Assembly: GCF_000009705.1 (NCBI RefSeq)
Contig: NC_003272.1
Coordinates: forward strand, 4,800,001 to 4,832,000
DNA: 32,000 bases
Direction of reading: 5' to 3'
DNA from: Nostoc sp. PCC 7120 = FACHB-418
GTDB lineage: Bacteria; Cyanobacteriota; Cyanobacteriia; Cyanobacteriales; Nostocaceae
Under the pieces are notes generated by a model. The model was not told where the DNA came from, did no database searches, and saw only the letters and a list, made by a program, of their open reading frames with translations. The translations under genes were made by a program, and so were the position numbers. Shown piece after piece: positions 1 through 23,150 of the stretch. Position 1 is the first letter of the stretch; each line of letters opens with the position of its first letter.

Positions 1-1403
1 TGATTTGGACTTTAGTATCCCAGGCTGTCTGTCGTTGAATCAAGGGTTCTTCTGGGGTGAGTGTGGAGTAAGTTGCTAAAAGTGGTAGTTGGACTGTAAA
101 TGTGGCTCCTTGTCCTTCTCCTGGGCTAGCAACTGATACTTTACCATTGTGAAGCTCAACGAGATTACGCACGATCGCCAGACCTAAACCCAGTCCTCCT
201 TGATTTCTGGTTGTGGTAGCATCTGCTTGGCGGAAACGGTCAAACACATAAGGCAAAAACTCAGGACTGATGCCTGTACCTGTGTCAATTACCTGAATCT
301 GCACATTAGTCTCTACTTGTTCTAGGCAAATTTCTACCCGTCCACCTTCAGGAGTAAACTTGACTGCATTGGAAAGTAGGTTCCAAATCACTTGCTGTAA
401 ACGTTCTGGGTCGGCAGAAACTAAACCAATATCAAAATTCAGGCGAGATATAATTTGGATTGATTTGGTATTGGCAATTGGGCGGACGGTATCTAGTGCG
501 GCTTGAATTACCGGAATCAATTTTGTGGGGCGCACAAGCAAGCGAATGTTACCGCGAATAATCCGGGAAATATCGAGTAAGTCTTCAATTAATTGAGTTT
601 GGGCTTGAGCATTGCGCTCAATGGATTCTAAAGCTTGTTCAATCTTTTCTGGTGACAGTTTGCGGGTGCGGAGCAGGCGCGACCAGCCTAAAATACCATT
701 GAGGGGCGATCGCAATTCATGGGAAACTATCGCTAAAAATTCATCTTTCATACGACTGGCTCTTTCCAGTTCTATACGAGCTGCCCGTTCTCGTTCTAAA
801 GCTTGCGCCCGCTCTTCAGTTACCATTAATTCGCTTTGGCGTAGTGCTTTTTCTGCTTGTATGCGCTCTGTTACATCTAACACTAGTGATAGCACAGAGG
901 TAACACTACCTTCTTCATTAGTAATGCTGGAGTTGTACCATTCGCAATAAATGACTCTGCCATCTTTGGTATAGTTGCGATTGTATTGGATAATTTGCGC
1001 TTCTTGGCCACTGAGGAGGCGATCGCTCACCTCTGCGACTGCTGTCATATCTTCCTCATAAACTATATGCAAATCTTGAATGTATTTTCCTATTACTTCT
1101 TCTGCCAGCCAGCCAAAGATTTTTTCAGCAGCCGATGACCAACGGGTAACGCACAAGTGGCAATCCCACTGCACTACTGCCAAAGGAGTAGTATCTATGT
1201 GTAGATTTAAAAGCTGTAGGGCATTTTGCAAAGCCAATTCAGATTGTTTACGCTCTGTGATTTCCTGGGTAATGGTCATTCCCGCAAAAATCTCACCATC
1301 ATCATTCCTCACAGGTAAAACATGGACTTCATAAACGCGATGTCCATAGGGTGCTTCAAAACGGGAGCTGATGCCTGCAAATGCTTGGCGATAGGTTGAC
1401 ATC
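1..1403 (-). pseudogene. Sensor histidine kinase, C-terminal fragment (second half of a PAS domain, a further PAS domain, HisKA, HATPase_c). It runs off the window at position 1 and is separated from its N-terminal part by an IS insertion.
   Basis: My minus-strand translation from the ATG at 1403 reads MSTYRQAFAGISSRFEAPYGHRVYEVHVLPVRNDDGEIFAGMTITQEITERKQSE... (PAS C-terminal half). It continues to the H-box AIVSHELRSPLNGILGW and the ATP-binding G-boxes DTGTGI and GGLGLGLAIVRNLVELHNGKV. This frame is absent from the ORF track because it leaves the window. The + strand ORFs 612..950 and 1080..1334 are antisense artefacts. Confidence 0.85.
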
Positions 1404-1560
1404 CTCCCCCGTTTAGAAAACGGGGGATTCCAAGAATCACTTCTTGGGCTTTCTCTTTCCACGACTCGACTTATTTGGAGGAGTTACCTCACCCAAACAG
1501 AGGTCGATATCTCCAGAGACTTGAGATCCTGTGTGTCCCACAGTACGTAGTCCTAGTTCA
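1376..1560 (-). ncRNA. Predicted TnpB omega-RNA (reRNA). The scaffold overlaps the tnpB 3' end and the right end of the element, and is followed by a guide of about 20 nt read from the flanking kinase sequence. Boundaries are approximate.
   Basis: This is inferred from the established architecture of TnpB elements, in which the omega-RNA spans the 3' end of tnpB and the RE and its guide is the DNA just outside the RE. Here the RE hairpin is at 1405..1427 and the flank 1395->1376 reads CCTATCGCCAAGCATTTGCA on the minus strand. The sequence gives no direct evidence of transcription. Confidence 0.35.
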
Positions 1561-2754
1561 AGTATGTTCCGTGCAGCGTTCCAATCCCTGTCTTGAATAT
1601 GTCCACAGTGAGGGCAAGCATGAGTTCTTGTACTCAGCGACTTTTTCACTACTTCGCCACAGTTGGAACAATTCTGCGAAGTGTGATGGGGTGGGACTGC
1701 AACAGTCACTACACCAAACACTTTGCCGAAATACTCAACCCATTGCCGAAACTGCGTCCACGCTGCATCACTAATCGACTTGGCAAGATGTCTATTCCTG
1801 ACCATGTTCCGCACCTGCAAATCCTCATAGGCTACCAAGTCGCTAGACTGGACTACGCACCTCGCCAACTTTACGGCGAAGTCTTTACGCTGCCTACTTA
1901 CTTTAAGGTGTTTTCTACTCAAGCGATTTCTTGCCTTGACTCTGTTGTTAGAACCCTTCTTGGTTTTAGACAATCTGCGTTGCAATCTCTTGAGAGACTT
2001 TTCGCTTTTACGCAAGTGTCTAGGGTTCTCAACTGTATTGCCTTCGCTATCGGTCAAGAAATGGTTCAATCCCACATCCAGCCCAATAGTTTTAAGCGTT
2101 GGTTCTCGCCTTTCTACTCGCTCTTGGTCAATGCAAAACTGCGCGTAGTACCCATCGGCACGACGCACAACCCGCACCCTCTTGAACTGTTTCAACTGGT
2201 AGAAATGCAAGTCACGAGTTCCCCAGAGTTTGAAAGTTCCTGCTTTAAATCCGTCGCTAAAAGTGACATAACGACGGTCACTACTAAGCTTCCAGCCGCT
2301 AGTTTTATACTCAACACTCCCATGCGTCTGTTCTTTTTTAAAGCGTGGATAACCTTTCTTCCCGGTTTTGTTTTGCTTGCAATTGTCAAAAAACCGAGCA
2401 ATTGCACTCCACGCTCTTTCAGCAGAAGCTTGTCGAGCCATAGAGTTGAGTTTGGCAACGAACGGAAAGTTTTCATTGGCAGCAAGGACAGCGCAATAAG
2501 CACTCAAATCATACCTGCCGATGTTTTGGTTGTCCATCCAGTACCGGAGGCAAGCATTGCGGACAAAACGAGCAGTTTTAATCGCCTCATCCAGCAATTG
2601 ATACTGCTCGTTTGTTCCTTCAAGTTTTGTCTCAAATACTAGCATTTTTACGTCAAACTCTCTGACGTAATTATACCATGTTACGACCGAATAAATTCGG
2701 TCATTCGCTTATATCCCCCGATTAAAAATACGGGGGCTTTACGCTTCACGGCTC
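1396..2754 (-). mobile_element. IS200/IS605-family insertion sequence of the TnpB-only (IS1341/IS608-like) type, 1359 bp, with no tnpA, inserted into the histidine kinase gene.
   Basis: On the minus strand the element sits immediately 3' of TTAC (2755..2758) and ends in TCAA (1396..1399). These are the target and right-end tetranucleotides I recall for IS608. Both ends carry the same subterminal hairpin motif CCCCCG-N9/10-CGGGGG (2715..2736 and 1405..1427), about 18 nt and 9 nt from the ends. There are no terminal inverted repeats and no target duplication. Joining the flanks restores one open PAS reading frame (...SSKVEL|PYRQAFAG...). Confidence 0.8.
1437..2645 (-). CDS. tnpB: TnpB (OrfB/IS605-family RNA-guided endonuclease), 402 aa.
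   Basis: RuvC-I motif IGLDVGLNHF, RuvC-II glutamate in VAYEDLQVRNM, zinc finger CSNCG...CPHCG, and RuvC-III DRDWNAARNI. The N-terminal part is typical of OrfB_IS605. The 349-aa ORF on the opposite strand (1593..2642) is an antisense artefact. Confidence 0.9.
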   Translation of the reverse strand: MLVFETKLEGTNEQYQLLDEAIKTARFVRNACLRYWMDNQNIGRYDLSAYCAVLAANENFPFVAKLNSMARQASAERAWSAIARFFDNCKQNKTGKKGYPRFKKEQTHGSVEYKTSGWKLSSDRRYVTFSDGFKAGTFKLWGTRDLHFYQLKQFKRVRVVRRADGYYAQFCIDQERVERREPTLKTIGLDVGLNHFLTDSEGNTVENPRHLRKSEKSLKRLQRRLSKTKKGSNNRVKARNRLSRKHLKVSRQRKDFAVKLARCVVQSSDLVAYEDLQVRNMVRNRHLAKSISDAAWTQFRQWVEYFGKVFGVVTVAVPPHHTSQNCSNCGEVVKKSLSTRTHACPHCGHIQDRDWNAARNILELGLRTVGHTGSQVSGDIDLCLGEVTPPNKSSRGKRKPKK

Positions 2755-3271
2755 GTAACTCAACCTTAGAAGAAGTTTCTGGGGGGAGTGCTTCCCAAAT
2801 TGTTTTACCTTCCATATCAGCTTTCGTAATTCCCACCACCTCTAACCCTAAACCTGCTGCCAAGATGAAGCGTAGATTTTGGTCAAACAGGAAAACGCCA
2901 CCATTGGGAATATTTTCTAGAACTGTGTGGATTAAATTTTGATTACTTTGTAAGGCTGCTTGTGTTTGTTTAAAGGCTGTAATATCGTCGGTAACTTCTG
3001 GTAATGTAGATAATTCTTGCTGGTGGCTATGCAGTTTGTCTTCTGGGTGCGGATGTTCAGTGACATCTTGCTTGGTGGCTGTGAGGATAAAAGCAATACC
3101 TGTGATAATGATGGCAATTAGTTCTAGCCAAAAGGTGAGCGCGATCGCTAATCTAGATACGGGAAAGCAAGAAGAAATATAAGGCTCACCCTGGTATATA
3201 GCTATTGCCTGAGTAAAAATCAGCACTAGCCAAGCCAAAATTAACACAATTTGTCTTTTGTGGAGCAACAT
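2681..3271 (-). pseudogene. Sensor histidine kinase, N-terminal fragment (two TM segments plus the first half of a PAS domain). The genuine gene sequence is 2755..3271. The last 25 codons (2681..2754) are read-through into the left end of the IS.
   Basis: Hydrophobic segments IVLILAWLVLIFTQAIAI and LAIALTFWLELIAIIITGIAFIL are followed by the PAS start LIHTVLENIPNGGVFLFDQNLRFILAAGLGLEVVGITKADMEGKTIWEALPPETSSKVE. The junk tail LRAVKRKAPVFLIGGYKRMTEFIRS* begins exactly at the TTAC insertion point. Confidence 0.8.
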
Positions 3272-11760: not shown

Positions 11761-12333
11761 ATGGCAGTTTTCGAGGGAACTTTTACTCAAACAGAACCTT
11801 TGCGTTTAGCGGTAGTGATTGGTCGGTTCAATGACCTTGTAACCACAAAGCTACTAGCAGGATGTCAAGATTGCTTAAAACGCCACGGTGTAGATCCCGA
11901 TCCCCACGGGAATCAAGTAGACTATGTTTGGGTTCCTGGAAGTTTTGAAGTACCTCTTGTTGCTCGTCAACTAGCTCTTACCCATCGTTATGATGCAATC
12001 ATCTGTCTTGGTGCTGTGATTCGTGGACAAACACCCCATTTTGATTATGTCTCCGCCGAAGTATCCAAAGGCATTGCTGCTGCTAGTTTCCAGACAGGCG
12101 TACCTGTAATTTTTGGGATTTTGACAGTAGATACCATGCAGCAAGCTTTAGAAAGAGCAGGTATCAAAGCTAATCATGGTTGGGACTATGCCATGAATGC
12201 TCTAGAAATGGCTAGCCTTATGCGCCAATTGCGTTCTAACGTTACAGATTCTTACTCCCAAACCCAATCCTTACCAGCCGCCTTTCCCAATGCCAGCATT
12301 GGTAAATTGACCGCAGAGTCTGAAGAAGTGTAA
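11761..12333 (+). CDS. ribH: 6,7-dimethyl-8-ribityllumazine synthase.
   Basis: [22 protein letters not shown]..., [30 protein letters not shown] and [10 protein letters not shown] are classical RibH motifs. Confidence 0.9.
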
Positions 12334-17698: not shown

Positions 17699-18661
17699 TT
17701 AGGAAATGTTACGCCCTCTCCAAGCGTGCCAAACATAACCCAAGAAAGCTAATATCCCTAGAAAAAATTGAATATTGGCAGCAAATAAACGTTCCGAACC
17801 GTAAAATTCCGTCGGAAAAACTGTAGTATTGTATCCCACAAAGCTGGCAGAAATCCAAGCCATCAAGGCTAAACCCAGTAAACTGTAAGCCAAAATTTCT
17901 TCGCCATTTTCTATTGGTAAAATTCTTCTCACCCAAGCAAATGGCTGTACGATAATATGCCAGATACCGCCAAAAATTAAAATGCCGCCAATCCAAATAT
18001 GACCACCAATGACATCCTCTAGATTGTCTACAGTTGCTATTCCTAAAGGATGCCAAGTATGATCTTTTAACCCGACTAAATAACCGAAAATTATGCCTGG
18101 GTTAAGAGTAGGGTTAGTAATCGAGCGTACATCTCCCAAATTAGTGTCATAAATGCCGCCAAAAAACATGGCTTTTAGCACTAGTAAGAATGCTCCTAAA
18201 CCCAGAATAATTAGGTGATGTCCTAAAATCAAACTCAATTGTTTAGGGTCATTCCATTCATAATGAAATTGCGCCGTTCTCCCACCGTTATTGTATAAAA
18301 TTGCTGGAGTGCGAAATACATGAAATAGTCCGCCTGCACCCAATACCGCAGAGGCAATTAAATGCAGTACACCAATGACGAAATAGGGATAGGTATCAAT
18401 TACTTGACCACCAACACCTACTCCCCAACCTAAGGTTGCTAGGTGTGGTAATAAAATTAAACCTTGCTCATACATGGGAACGTCAGGAACAAAGCGAAGG
18501 ACTTCTGAGATGGTAGTTGTTCCTGCCCAAAACATAATTAAGCCGGCATGGGCAATATGTGCGCCTAATAATTGACCAGATAAATCAGTCAAACGAGCAT
18601 TACCAATTAACCAAGGTAATTGTGTGTTTGCTGCAAAAGTTCTATCAGTAGAAATTGCCAC
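17699..18661 (-). CDS. CP43-like chlorophyll-binding protein (IsiA/Pcb family), paralog 4 in transcription order, 320 aa with a GTG start.
   Basis: [40 protein letters not shown] and [25 protein letters not shown] are typical of the six-helix CP43/IsiA family without the large lumenal loop. Its length and N-terminus align with the three neighbours. Confidence 0.85.
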
Positions 18662-18904
18662 TGTTATCTATCCTCTCTAGAAAAGTGCTGAGTTATGTAT
18701 AGACTCAGCACACTGACCTCATCCTTATCACTCAGAGAGCGAGACCGAAACTGACAACTGATACCAACTCAAAATTGAGAAATCCAAATTTTACAATGGT
18801 TTTAGGATTTGGATTTGTTTCATGATGTTGTTGAATTGGTATAAGGAGTTATTGAGATGCCATTGCTTTAACTTGCACATCTTTTCATGTTGGCTGTTAA
18901 CAGT

Positions 18905-19050
18905 TGACCGTTAGCCCTCCGGGTACTCTTCGAGAACTCCTTTCCTACGGAACGCTCCGCGAACGGAGAACGGCAGTGACGCTCCTAACGTCGCTACCGC
19001 AATCGACGGAAACCGCCAAGACTGCGACTGCCTCACAGCCAACAAACCAT
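18905..19050. other. GC-rich structured island within an AT-rich intergenic region. It could be a repeat element or a small RNA.
   Basis: A local run of CG-containing sequence (CCCTCCGGGTACTCTTCGAGAACTCC...ACGCTCCGCGAACGGAGAACGGCAGTGACGCTCCTAACGTCGCTACCGCAATCGACGGAAACCGCC). It holds two adjacent hairpins: CTCCG-CGAA-CGGAG (18955..18968), and an 11-bp stem CGGCAGTGACG / CGTCGCTACCG (18971..18999) with one mismatch and one wobble pair. Confidence 0.4.
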
Positions 19051-19083
19051 ACAAGTGACTATGTAATTTAAAAGCGTAATAGC

Positions 19084-20118
19084 TTACTCAGCACTACTAA
19101 TGGCATTCAATGACTTTTCAATTTGCCTAAAGTCAACGCCAATAGCGCGTAGCGCGTGCCACAGATGACCTTGCAAGAAGAAGAAAGCTAAGAAAAAGTG
19201 AGCATTAGCTAACCATGCTCTCGCACTGTAGCCGCCATCAGCTAACTTGACTGTATCGGCAAAATAAGGAGTGACACCAAACTTTAATTCTAAGGGCGCA
19301 CCATAGAACTCTACAGGATAAGCTAAGGTGTTGACCGCACAAAAATAAGCGGCGACAAACCCAGCCAAAGCAATACCACCCAAAGAATAAGAAAGAATCG
19401 CTTCACCAGAAAAGATTAACAGCTTTTTAGCCCAAGGTAACGGCTCTTTGACGATGTGCCAAATACCGCCACCAATCAGGATTAAACCTACATAAATATG
19501 ACCACCCACCAAATCTTCTAGGTTGTTAACACTGGCAAAATGAGTTTGATAGCCATAGATAACAAAGGGGTTGAGGGTGGGATGGTTAACTACTCTGACA
19601 ACCTGAGTTGTTGCGTCGTATAGTCCTCCCCAAAACATAGCTTTTCCTACCAGTAATAAAGCTGCCATGCCTAAAAACAGGAGGTGATGCCCTAAAATCA
19701 AACCGAGTTGTTTCGGGTCGTTCCATTCAAAGTGAAATTTACGAGCAGAACCAGTAGTGTTTTTTAAATTGCGTGGCCCTTTGAAGGTATGAAAGAGCGC
19801 ACCTGCTCCCAAAACGGCAGAAGAGATTAAATGCAAAGCTCCAATGACAAAGTAAGGGTAAGTATTGACTACTTGACCAGATACACCAACACCAAAACCC
19901 AAAGTAGCTAAATGGGGTAACAAAATAAGTCCTTGCTCACCCATTGGGATTTCGGGTTTGTAACGAGAAATTTCAAACCATGTAAACGCCCCTGCCCAGA
20001 GGGTTGTCAGAGCAGCTTGGGCTACGTGTGCGCCGATGAATAAGCCAGAGAGATTGGCGAAGCGGGCATTACCAGCCCACCAATCATATTTGATGTTGGG
20101 ATTATCGTATGTCTGCAT
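19084..20118 (-). CDS. isiA: Iron-stress-induced chlorophyll-binding protein IsiA (CP43'), 344 aa, the most canonical-looking paralog.
   Basis: [68 protein letters not shown] and [14 protein letters not shown]. The size and motifs fit IsiA. Confidence 0.85.
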
Positions 20119-20330
20119 TGGTTTCTAAATTTATAGAGTTGTTGCCAGAAATACTCAAGTATTGGCTGATTAACTTCAGCATAAAAAATTTGAGAGAATA
20201 ACTAGAGTTAATTGAATGCTTGAAGTTAACAGTTGATTTGGGTGGATATAAATCTAATTTATTGAAAAAGATTCTTAATTAATACTATTTTTTACAAAAG
20301 TTAACAATTATTTTGCAGTCAATTTAACAG

Positions 20331-20363
20331 CAAAAAATCGGCGACAATAAGTAATTTTGTCGC
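20331..20363 (-). terminator. Candidate Rho-independent terminator for the two-gene isiA-like/isiA-psaL transcription unit.
   Basis: The minus strand reads GCGACAA-AATTACTTA-TTGTCGC followed by CGATTTTTTG. It lies about 325 nt downstream of the 20689 stop, beyond MITE copy D. Confidence 0.4.
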
Positions 20364-20393
20364 TGTCAAAAAGGGTGAATCACCAATTAAATT

Positions 20394-20534
20394 AGGACTT
20401 ACCCATGAAAACCAAAAATCAAGGGTTTGGGCAAGGATATAGGGGTGTAGTGGTAAATATTTAAAACCATTACACCCCTATACCCTTACACCCTCACACC
20501 CAGTCTCAACAGACAATCTGGGTGCGTAAGTCCT
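20394..20534. repeat. MITE-like palindromic repeat, copy D, complete.
   Basis: AGGACTTACCCA...TGCGTAAGTCCT termini with one mismatch. It aligns along its whole length with copy B and is flanked by T and A. Confidence 0.75.
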
Positions 20535-20688
20535 ATAAATAGGAGAGTATTTACACCTCTACAACATAGGTTTGAAAAACCAAATTTTCTGTGTGCATAA
20601 GTGGTCAAACATCAGGTCACAATTCATTTTTACAAGTTTGATTACTGTAGAATAACCCGACTTTTTTCAACATTTGGAAACCTGATAT

Positions 20689-22119
20689 TTAGAAAAACAA
20701 ACTGCTATTAGTTACGAGCAAATAAGCAAATAAAGCTCCGCCGCAGCTACCAACTATCCAACCAGCATTAAACTCGCTCCAAGACTTAGCTGTTTTGAGA
20801 TTTTCTGGTAGCTCACCTTGGGGAGATTTGCCTTCTTGAAACCATGCACTGCCATATAGCCACAGGCATATTGATAAAATCAATAACAGACCAATGGTTG
20901 CAAGCAGTCCGGCTTGATTAGCAAACTCTGTATTCCGCAAGGGGCCTAATTTGACGAAGGGGCCAAGCAGGAAATAGCCATGAGCCATGCCGATTTCTAA
21001 GCCACGGGCAAAGGCAGACAAACCCGGACGATAAATTGGCAGATTTACCAAAAACTTCAGCGTCAAATCAGAAGTATTAATTGGGGTTTGGAGGTTTCCT
21101 AGTTCTGGTGTATCCAGATAGTTGACTACTCCCTGTTCAAAATTCAATCCAGCCTCTAGGACACGCACTCTCAAAGCGTGCCATATATGACCAGATAGAA
21201 ACACAATTGCCAAAGCAAAATGGCTGGTTGCTAACCAAGTACGAACCGAAATTACCCCTGATGTACTACTGAATCCCAAAGGGCCATAGAACTCAGTCGG
21301 ATAAACGGTGTCATTAACAGTCACAAAGTATGCGGCTAATAAACCCATATAGGCTAGAGCAGCAAGACTATAGGATAAGTAGGCCTCACCAGACCAGAAA
21401 AGTACCTTTTTCGCCCAAGCAAAAGGTTGAGTCAAGATATGCCAAAATCCCCCACCAATGCAGAGAATGCCTACCCAAATATGGCCACCAACAACATCTT
21501 CTAAGTTATTGACAGCAGCCATTCCCTGCTTGCCAAATGCACCGAAGAGATAACCAAAAATCCGAGCCGGATTGACAGTGGGTTCAGTAATGACTCTGAC
21601 AGATGCAACCGTTGAATCATAAAGACCGCCCCAAAATAAGGCTTTTGCGACCAACAACCAAGCACCTGCACCTAACAACAGTAAGTGAATGCCGATGATT
21701 GTGGTCATTTTGTCTTCATCTTCCCAGTCATAACCAAAGAAACCAGGAAATTGATTGTTTTCGGGCAATACTTCTGGCCCCAACAAGGCATGATAAATAC
21801 CACCCGCAGCGAGTACAGCCGAACTAACTAAATGCACTACACCAATGACGAAATAAGGATAAGTATCAATGATTTGTCCCCCATCACCAATACCAAATCC
21901 CAAGGTTGCTAAATGAGGCAGTAAGATTAACCCTTGTTCGTATATAGGTAGGGAGGGGTTGTATTTGGTGATTTCAAATAGGGTCATTGCCCCTGCCCAC
22001 AGGATAATTAAGCCTGCATGGGCAATGTGCGCTCCTAATAGACGACCTGAGAGATTGATAAACCTAGCGTTACCTGCCCACCATCCATATTGTTGGGGGT
22101 TGATTGTTGCCGTAGTCAT
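20689..22119 (-). CDS. IsiA(CP43')-PsaL fusion protein, 476 aa.
   Basis: The N-terminal ~330 aa belong to the IsiA family ([31 protein letters not shown]...). The C-terminal ~140 aa are PsaL-like ([52 protein letters not shown]...[16 protein letters not shown]). Confidence 0.9.
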
Positions 22120-22121
22120 AG

Positions 22122-23150
22122 TTAAATTACCTGCCCACGAGTTGGAAGTAAAACTTTTCCGGTCCGGAAATCAAAACCTGCCGCGCGGAGGGCGTGCCAA
22201 AGATGCCCTTGCAGGAAGAAAAAGCCCAGCCAAAAGTGAGCATTTGCTAACCAAACACGAGAGGATAATAAATCTGCACTTTGGAAGTAGGGAAAGCGGT
22301 CAAAACCAATACTCAATGCTGGCCCAAAAAACTCTACAGGGTAAGCCAGTGTGTTGATAGAAACAAAATAAGCCGCTATCAAACTCATTAAGCTTAATGC
22401 ACCTAAGCTGTAGGAAAGATATGCTTCTCCTGACCAAACAAAGAGACTTTTGACAAAAGCTGAAGGCTCGGTGGTAATGTGCCAGAGACCCCCAGCAATG
22501 CAGAGAATACTGACCCAAATATGACCACCAACCAAGTCTTCGAGATTATCGACTCCCGCAATCCAATATTTATGACTACCAAATAGGTAGCTAAAAATAG
22601 TTGCAAAGTTCCAAGTCGGATGAGAAATAACTCGCACTTCTCCTAATGTGGGGTCGTATAAGCCTCCAAAAAAGACGGCTTTGGCAACGAGTAAGCCTGC
22701 TCCTAAACCTAGCAAAACTAAATGTATGCCCAGGATAGTCGTCATTTTATTAGCATCTTGCCAACGGTAGCCAAAGAAGGAAAATCTCTCTTCCAGAATG
22801 GCAGGGCCGAGGAGAGCATGAAAAATTCCGCCTAGACCCAGAAAGGCAGAGCTAATCAGGTGTAATACTCCAATCACAAAGTAGGGATAGGTATCTATAA
22901 CCTGACCACCACTACCCACACCCCAACCCAGAACGGCTAAATGGGGTAGGAGAATTAAGCCTTGCTCATACATTGGTTGTGATGTCTGGAAACGGGCTAG
23001 TTCAAACAAGGTTGTTGCTCCTGCCCACAGCACAATTAAGCCTGCGTGAGCCACATGAGCGCCTAACAGTCGCCCTGAAAGATGAGTTAAGCGAGCGTTA
23101 CCAGACCACCAAGGGATAGAGTTGGGAGTTTGCACAGCGATGCTCGTCAT
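22122..23150 (-). CDS. CP43-like chlorophyll-binding protein (IsiA/Pcb family), first gene of the array, 342 aa.
   Basis: [43 protein letters not shown] and [16 protein letters not shown]. Its stop is 2 nt from the start of the fusion gene, so the two are probably co-transcribed. Confidence 0.85.

Follow-up and report, generated by a model that had tools for sequence, protein, structure and literature searches.

The 32,000-nt stretch of the Nostoc sp. PCC 7120 chromosome analyzed here (NC_003272.1, positions 4,800,001 to 4,832,000; hereafter the window, in which all coordinates are given) contains a 1,359-bp insertion at 1396..2754 on the minus strand, delimited by direct reading of the window sequence. 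The insertion is very probably a non-autonomous, TnpB-only element of the IS200/IS605 family, of the IS1341 type and with IS608-like ends. As a whole the element was recognized by an empty site in Anabaena sp. CCY 9910 (locus L011) and by identical copies elsewhere, including one in the cyanophage A-1(L). The gene that it interrupts encodes a hybrid PAS sensor histidine kinase. Because an uninterrupted syntenic ortholog was found and the annotated start of the 3' fragment lies inside the element, the two kinase fragments are one recently split gene.

The interrupted kinase gene and its empty site

The 5' fragment of the kinase gene (2755..3271, minus strand) encodes a transmembrane N-terminus and the first half of a PAS_4 domain, as determined by a domain search and from the ortholog (P0001). 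The 3' fragment (1..1395, minus strand), which is 100% identical to annotated PCC 7120 proteins (P0007 and P0003), encodes the second half of PAS_4 followed by PAS, HisKA and HATPase_c domains; the window ends within this fragment, before the receiver domain is reached. In the kinase frame the flanks read TCT AAG GTT GAG TTA C^ to the left of the element and ^CC TAT CGC CAA GCA to its right (^ marks an element boundary). The in silico removal of 1396..2754 resulted in a single stop-free frame of 637 codons to the window edge that contained PPETSSKVELPYRQAFAGISSRFEAPYGH. In the joined protein, the Pfam domain PAS_4 extended from residue 125 to residue 223 and spanned the junction (172/173), with PAS, HisKA and HATPase_c after it. 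A preliminary description of this DNA had proposed that the two kinase reading frames were halves of one PAS domain and that removal of the element would restore a continuous frame, and both proposals were borne out.

A protein search with the joined kinase retrieved an uninterrupted 764-aa ortholog from Anabaena sp. CCY 9910 that was 93% identical over the full query and read SSEVELPYRQAFAG / PPETSSEVELPYRQAFAGISSRFEAPYGH across the junction, as the preliminary description had predicted for an intact gene. The CCY 9910 DNA and the joined flanks aligned as one colinear block of 2,541 nt with 93.6% identity. Its junction was gapless and without the element (GAGTTAC^C(C/T)TATCGCC / GAGTTAC^C(C/T)TATCGCCAAGC), and the kinase neighborhood was the same, the gene being flanked upstream by an SbcC-like gene (1008 aa) and downstream by a gene of 231 aa.

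Annotations of PCC 7120-type genomes list two separate proteins for the fragments, one of 196 aa and one of 594-618 aa; in several such genomes only the truncated 3' product of 594-618 aa is encoded. Translation of this product is annotated to begin (MSTYRQ...) at an ATG inside the terminal GGAGGATGTCAA of the element. This right-end tail (1396-1407, minus strand) is conserved and its ATG faces outward, here in frame with the kinase fragment (594-aa protein), so that the start codon of the truncated kinase could come from the element.

Ends of the element and comparison with IS608

On the minus strand, the left end reads ...TCTAAGGTTGAGTTAC^GAGCCGTGAAGCGTAAAG-CCCCCG-TATTTTTAAT-CGGGGG, followed by ATATAAGCG, and the right end reads GGAAT-CCCCCG-TTTTCTAAA-CGGGGG-AGGATGTCAA^CCTATCGCCAAGCA. 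The 3' end of tnpB runs into the right end as CCCAAGAAG TGA TTCTTGGAAT CCCCCG TTTTCTAAA CGGGGG AGGATGTCAA. Directly outside the left end lies TTAC (2755..2758, minus strand), the target and left cleavage tetranucleotide C_L as in IS608, which was read directly in the window and was present 5' of all nine distinct copies of the element. The left-end core (2715..2754, minus strand) consists of a 14-nt linker GAGCCGTGAAGCGT, the guide AAAG (2737-2740), which equals the IS608 guide G_L, and the hairpin CCCCCG-N10-CGGGGG (2715-2736), which starts 18 nt from the left end. It is followed by a second hairpin, GACCGAATTTATTCGGTC (2685..2702, minus strand), and an equivalent hairpin was present at the same place in L123, L182, L027 and L049. 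The right-end core (1396..1430, minus strand) comprises the guide GAAT (1427-1430), the hairpin CCCCCG-N9-CGGGGG (1406-1426), the spacer AGGATG and the cleavage tetranucleotide TCAA (1396-1399). The right hairpin ends 10 nt from the right terminus, TCAA counted, where the preliminary description had estimated about 9 nt; the left distance and the matching hairpins at both ends that it had given were reproduced.

The pattern CCCCCG-N8-11-CGGGGG occurred exactly twice in the window, in both cases at the element ends, and no occurrence was expected from 100 shuffles. Both hairpins fold as single-stranded DNA, and the right one can be extended to 10 bp. An inverted-repeat scan of the element detected no terminal pair, and the empty site of CCY 9910 showed TTAC once and no duplicated bases, so that the earlier reading of an element 3' of TTAC that ends in TCAA and has neither terminal inverted repeats nor a target duplication was upheld by sequence, repeat scan and empty site. 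A match to GCAGGATGTCAA at 11857 lies inside a lumazine-synthase gene and was dismissed as a chance match.

The preliminary description had noted a resemblance to IS608. In the literature, C_L of IS608 (TTAC) is placed 19 nt 5' of the left hairpin and C_R (TCAA) 10 nt 3' of the right hairpin, with AAAG as G_L and GAAT as G_R. The authentic IS608 (ISHp608) was taken from Helicobacter pylori plasmid pUM157 and its ends were aligned with those of the window element. Both insert 3' of TTAC, end in TCAA and carry AAAG and GAAT directly 5' of the left and right subterminal hairpins. The left ends are TTAC^N16-AAAG-CCCC...GGGGATACAAG in IS608 and TTAC^N14-AAAG-CCCCC...GGGGGATATAAG in the window, and the right ends are GAATCCCC...GGGGAGTATGTCAA^ and GAATCCCC...GGGGAGGATGTCAA^, respectively. 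The right tail is 10 nt long in both (IS608 AGTATGTCAA, window AGGATGTCAA). Both also share hairpin feet of CCCC/GGGG, the sequence GGGGATA(C/T)AAG after the left hairpin, and the lack of terminal inverted repeats and of a target duplication. The resemblance was therefore confirmed for the four tetranucleotides and the right spacer; the left spacer is considered below. IS608 carries tnpA and tnpB in the same orientation, whereas the window element carries tnpB only and resides in a cyanobacterial host.

TnpB and family placement

[quoted passage not shown] The protein matched the Pfam models OrfB_IS605 (1.5e-32) and Cas12f1-like_TNB (2.1e-21), and the model HTH_OrfB_IS605 gave no match at E<0.01. 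Residues 7-370 aligned with the structures of ISDra2 TnpB (8EXA/8H1J) with an E value of 2e-40. The RuvC triad is intact (D190, E274 and DRD 352-354, aligned to ISDra2 D191/E278/D361), and both CxxC pairs of the zinc ribbon are kept (CSNC...CPHC).

Upstream of tnpB, consensus matches were found to a putative -10 promoter box, TATAAT (2670-2675, within 2646..2676, minus strand), and to a hairpin in the 5' untranslated region, ACGTCA-N7-TGACGT, directly 5' of the ATG (2650-2668, minus strand). A TAnnnT box was present in 74 of 79 relatives, and 60 of the 79 had a hairpin of at least 6 bp upstream of tnpB.

The relatives comprised 80 genomic TnpB loci (L013-L092) with 73-95% amino acid identity, nearly all of them titled cyanobacteria; one contig was an Acetobacteraceae metagenome-assembled genome. 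No Y1 tnpA was found in the element, in the window, beside the PCC 7120-type copies or adjacent to tnpB in any of the 80 relatives, and the statement of the preliminary description that the element lacks tnpA was thereby extended to the window. The Y1 HUH TnpA whose presence characterizes the IS200/IS605 family is thus not encoded by the element itself. As no TnpA was found in the element, in the window or beside the relatives, the element was placed in the non-autonomous, TnpB-only (IS1341-type) subgroup. The IS607 family does not accommodate it: tnpB is its only gene and its ends are of the Y1/IS608 type; IS607-type elements are not known to have these hairpins.

Two further systems offer close comparisons. 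ISDra2 of Deinococcus radiodurans shares with the window element the full-length TnpB alignment, the RuvC D/E/D and zinc-finger motifs, a structured RNA that overlaps the 3' end of tnpB up to the right end, and a guide taken from the flank. It differs in its TAM (target-adjacent motif) and target, TTGAT and not TTAC, and in being autonomous with its own tnpA; its activity has been proven experimentally, whereas we infer that of the window TnpB. Elements of the IS1341 group and IS891 of Anabaena likewise consist of one tnpB without tnpA, show neither terminal inverted repeats nor a target duplication and presumably rely on mobilization in trans. IS891, compared by its description, is reported to have a TnpB that matches HTH_OrfB_IS605, unlike the window TnpB.

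A predicted ωRNA at the right end

Outside the hairpin, the last ~45 nt of the element were almost invariant in 77 relatives (GAATC-hairpin-GAGGATGTCAA), and TCAA was 3'-terminal in all copies and invariant in these 77; the hairpin itself was free to vary in sequence and length. The last 240 nt of the 77 sequences were aligned (alignment A1) and folded with RNAalifold. Covariation in A1 and a single-sequence fold delimited a predicted ωRNA scaffold in the last ~148 nt (1396..1543, minus strand), with stems at 1543-1529, 1519-1452 (multi-stem), 1447-1430 (with the tnpB stop codon in its loop) and 1427-1405 (the right-end hairpin). The region contained 32 pairs, with 98.7% of cells paired and compensatory changes in 21 of the 32. 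The covariation score was 0.418, compared to at most 0.082 in slid-partner controls, and it was reached by none of 500 shuffles. The same stems were obtained in the minimum free energy fold of the single sequence. As judged from this structure, the segment that spans the tnpB 3' end and the right terminus corresponds to the scaffold expected of an ωRNA; for comparison, the right element RNA (reRNA) of ISDra2 has ~150 nt (Karvelis 2021).

By analogy with the ISDra2 reRNA and the homing model, the predicted guide is the 16-nt stretch of kinase flank that adjoins the right end, CCTATCGCCAAGCATT (1380..1395, minus strand). The TAM is predicted to be TTAC, because in ISDra2 and Geobacillus elements the TAM equals the TnpA target (Karvelis 2021; Meers 2023). 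Under the homing model, the donor joint TTAC^CCTATCGCC is predicted to be the exact TnpB target. The nine copies have nine different flanks, and each would thus carry a different predicted guide. The natural empty site of CCY 9910, TTAC^CTTATCGCC, differs from TTAC^CCTATCGCC of the window at predicted guide position 2, by a synonymous change in a Pro codon.

No Rfam family reached its gathering threshold over the element. Below threshold, HgcC (RF00062) matched 1383-1494 on the minus strand with 20.6 bits against a gathering value of 50 (E 0.04). HgcC is an archaeal non-coding RNA family associated with the 3' ends of IS1341-type tnpB genes, and this weak match would be consistent with the ωRNA assignment. 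Insertions of 25-50 nt were observed in the ωRNA region of L049, L077, L047 and L081/L090, where they lay in a loop behind the first stem, within the multi-stem or within the terminal hairpin. Such sites may be permissive for insertions or may contain small nested repeats.

Other copies of the element

Many contigs encode precisely this 402-aa TnpB. Ten locations with it were fetched, on a PCC 7120-type chromosome (two sites, including this locus) and on two plasmids of 408 kb and 104 kb. All carried a 1,359-bp element with 0-1 mismatch, of the form TTAC^GAGCC...GTCAA^ and with unrelated flanks. Altogether, with the copy in phage A-1(L), nine distinct insertion sites were counted, this locus and at least eight others. 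The preliminary description had expected other copies to share the TTAC-left and TCAA-right boundaries, which was the case at all nine sites. A 100% identical full-length copy lies 3' of TTAC in cyanophage A-1(L) (L093, OR360731, 51669-53027) and in Nostoc phage A1 (KU234533). In the genome of A-1(L), a lytic cyanophage, its neighbors are a hypothetical gene on one side and a thymidylate kinase gene on the other. The phage collection searched contained no phage related to A-1(L) with an empty site. In PLSDB, no PCC 7120 plasmid copy of the element was found, the only match being 77% in Nostoc UHCC 0926. One metagenomic contig (L010, Joint Genome Institute metagenome 3300030446) combined flanks of two loci across the element, on the left that of a plasmid copy (also seen in L001 and L004) and on the right that of the kinase locus; it most likely is an assembly chimera through the repeat.

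According to a 2026 preprint (bioRxiv 10.64898/2026.02.14.705889), all3986, alr4104, alr7228, alr7231 and all8010 of PCC 7120 are identical to the tnpB of the phage. The tnpB of the window most likely is all3986, with which the four tandem isiA-like genes 15-20 kb away agree. In the preprint, a histidine-kinase insertion in PCC 7120 is credited to Wolk et al. 2010; according to this citing source, the insertion is already in the literature and was catalogued in 2010.

The preliminary description had further argued for a recent or foreign origin from the absence of the HIP1 (highly iterated palindrome) site GCGATCGC. The element indeed contains no HIP1 site, but with 22 sites in 32 kb only 0.98 are expected in 1,359 bp, so that the absence carries no statistical weight (P(0) = 0.38) and HIP1 depletion was rejected as a sign of foreign origin. 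As far as the sequences tell, the insertion is recent, and this is shown by the near-identical copies and the undecayed kinase frame and not by the absence of HIP1.

Autonomous relatives and the source of the transposase

The preliminary description had concluded that mobility would need a TnpA supplied in trans. The left-end motif CGTGAWGCGTAAAGCCCC was used to scan metagenomes, which yielded 80 loci, most of them flanked by TTAC. An IS608-like Y1 tnpA, 34-39% identical to IS608 TnpA, was present at 11 of the 80, in most cases on the opposite strand and ~60 nt inward of the left end, and mostly followed by a different tnpB with ~30% identity to that of the window. L117 and L123 are complete 1.68-kb elements; the first 24 nt of their left end are 96% identical to the window (92% in L182, an element of Nostoc sp. 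PCC 7524 with the same architecture), and their right-end hairpin is identical to that of the window. The left end of the three is nearly the same as in the window, TTAC^GAGTCGTGA(A/T)GCGTAAAG-CCCCCG...CGGGGG-ATATAAGCGAA, and is followed by a second hairpin. The right-end hairpin of L123 is that of the window, CCCCCGTTTTCTAAACGGGGG, and L117, L123 and L182 all end in GTCAA. These autonomous elements encode an IS608-like Y1 TnpA of 133-149 aa on the opposite strand just inside the left end. They differ from the window element in their TnpB, which is shorter (373-385 aa) and ~30% identical to it, and in their total length of 1,679-1,725 bp. Their TnpA family had 385 members at E<=1e-20, and all matches with an organism name were cyanobacteria, including Nostoc sp. 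PCC 7524. A cognate transposase family thus exists in other cyanobacteria, which supports TnpA action in trans, because autonomous relatives share near-identical ends and encode an IS608-like Y1 tnpA. This part of the earlier conclusion gained support.

A different IS605-type element, with tnpA and a 407-aa tnpB, was observed on the PCC 7120-type 408-kb plasmid (CP183474; L003, 994-2604), where a further copy of the window element lies ~300 bp away. The tnpA of this different element carries a frameshift close to the N-terminus (MEVKHGRGYVY / CNEYHIVW), and intact relatives of the same element (L094, L095 and L098) insert at TTGAT, have different hairpins and end in GAGGTTCAA. As its tnpA is frameshifted and its kin target TTGAT with other ends, it was rejected as the trans-acting transposase.

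Among the TnpB relatives at 75-95% identity, a near-invariant right end and ωRNA were combined with several unrelated left-end types, situated 130-450 nt upstream of tnpB (L013-L092). These were the IS608-like type of the window, a TTTAC^C..TGGGTCTAAAG-hairpin type, and a long block of ~90 nt with nested hairpins (GAGATGAATCG...AAAAAC...GTTTTT). The mixed left ends suggest modular exchange of the end that TnpA would recognize. A strict TTAC-N13-16-AARG-hairpin pattern fitted 7 of the 80 relatives; it was too strict, as the other left-end types place the hairpin foot differently.

Proposed mechanism and alternative explanations

In the proposed model, which draws on Karvelis 2021 and Meers 2023, the element would move as a single strand, by 'peel-and-paste' transposition. 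The two subterminal hairpins would be bound by a Y1 TnpA provided in trans, and AAAG would pair with TTAC and GAAT with TCAA. The top strand would be cut after TTAC and after TCAA and the excised strand circularized, and the circle would enter single-stranded DNA at a replication fork, on the 3' side of another TTAC. The donor would be resealed on excision as TTAC^CCTATCGCC. TnpB together with the ωRNA, whose 16-nt guide would be read from the right flank, would then recognize TTAC as TAM and cut the donor joint, and recombination with a sister copy would restore the element (homing). Inactivation or truncation of the kinase gene would be a side effect of the insertion.

Several observations weigh against a mobile element of the IS608 type. 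Counted alike, the left spacer measures 18 nt in the window and 20 nt in IS608, the hairpins of the window are perfect palindromes of 6-10 bp whereas those of IS608 are imperfect, and the window TnpB is 27.6% identical to IS608 TnpB. We infer ωRNA expression, TAM and nuclease activity. No cognate Y1 TnpA was found in the window, beside the copies examined or among the named PCC 7120 proteins in the best 120 matches, and the one tnpA seen in a PCC 7120-type plasmid belongs to the TTGAT-targeting element. The lack of a tnpA next to any of the related loci or here, and of a cognate TnpA shown in PCC 7120, would also fit an immobile relic or a domesticated TnpB, for instance a TldR-like RNA-guided regulator, between two kinase-related genes. 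Such a relic is nevertheless highly improbable in the face of nine identical copies at unrelated TTAC sites, one of them in a phage, an intact RuvC triad, ends that are conserved and common to autonomous elements, and a precise empty site in the sister species. That the kinase fragments are separate, independently conserved genes joined by coincidence can hardly be entertained. Their separate annotation in PCC 7120-type genomes speaks for it, but the join restores a single PAS_4 domain, the 764-aa ortholog matches across the junction, and the annotated start of the 3' fragment belongs to the right end of the element; the colinear, gapless DNA over 2.5 kb with the same neighbors refutes it.

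The copies might also have spread without a Y1 transposase, by TnpB/ωRNA homing and recombination alone, by phage transfer or by a serine (IS607-type) recombinase. The family is TnpB-only in all 80 genomic relatives, an identical copy resides on a lytic cyanophage, and the unrelated left ends among close TnpB relatives suggest modular exchange, all of which would agree with such a route. Homing, however, restores only sites that match the guide, while the nine unrelated flanks share TTAC alone. The complete Y1 signals of the IS608 type are present at the ends, L117, L123 and L182 combine these ends with a Y1 tnpA, and no serine recombinase was seen. We therefore regard spread without Y1 as very unlikely and retain single-strand transposition by a TnpA in trans as the preferred explanation.

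An open antisense frame across tnpB

The ORF list contained an antisense ORF of 349 codons across tnpB (1593..2642, plus strand), in codon register with it. It corresponds to 'TnpB_rev' of the preprint, in which peptides and transcripts are reported for it (bioRxiv 10.64898/2026.02.14.705889). Stops in this frame arise from the sense codons TTA, CTA and TCA. None of these occur in codons 3-363 of the window tnpB, compared to 6.1% of codons in the host genes of the window. Over the same ~350 codons in 68 distinct intact relatives, antisense stops were absent from 23, numbered one or two in 20 and ten or more in 10; more distant relatives had 10-25 antisense-stop codons. In the 23 open relatives, TTA and CTA each accounted for 0 of 526 Leu codons and TCA for 0 of 539 Ser codons. 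Between pairs of open relatives ~40% of codons for the same amino acid differed, and the invariant columns had undergone synonymous changes in at least 37 Leu and 27 Ser cases. The control codons GTA, ACA and GCA were used alike in all groups, the G+C content was 46.2% in the open group and 45.0% in the group with ten or more stops, and TTA, CTA and TCA were normal downstream of codon 350.

At the amino acid level the antisense frame is poorly conserved (56%, compared to 86% for TnpB), and its product had no Pfam match. A phmmer search with the antisense protein returned 354 cluster representatives, some of 330-644 aa at 28-31% identity. These were rejected as an independent sign of function, as they are probably shadow ORFs of distant tnpB genes read on the wrong strand.

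Judged by codon usage, selection for an open antisense frame is likely, and a functional antisense protein is possible. We put forward tentatively, as a reading to which we give somewhat less than even weight, that tnpB may be 'ambigrammatic', with an antisense ORF of ~350 codons kept stop-free by selection across a clade of cyanobacterial elements, either as a functional protein (TnpB_rev) or translated for another reason. The pattern resembles that of ambigrammatic narnaviruses. Possible antisense roles are the modulation of TnpB or ωRNA expression, or of the behavior of the element in host or phage.

Nearby features and significance

The window also contains four tandem isiA/CP43'-like genes (17699-23150, minus strand), one of which includes a fused PsaL domain (476 aa). 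Opposite each isiA-like gene, a full-length Rfam match to the IsrR antisense RNA was observed (18079, 19548, 21549 and 22586, plus strand; 117-154 bits).

The element is ordinary and already catalogued. TnpB-only IS200/IS605 elements are very common and their mechanism, by Y1 TnpA in trans and TnpB/ωRNA homing, is established, so that the finding as such matters little. The locus is a clean, fully delimited natural example that combines an empty site, a predicted TAM and guide, a covarying ωRNA and some nine identical copies, one of them phage-borne. It would conveniently serve to study TnpB homing in a cyanobacterium amenable to genetics, and its TnpB is a compact (402-aa) candidate nuclease with a TTAC TAM. 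More interesting are two by-products of the analysis: the mixed left ends, with the modular exchange they imply, and the antisense ORF that seems to be selected to stay open.

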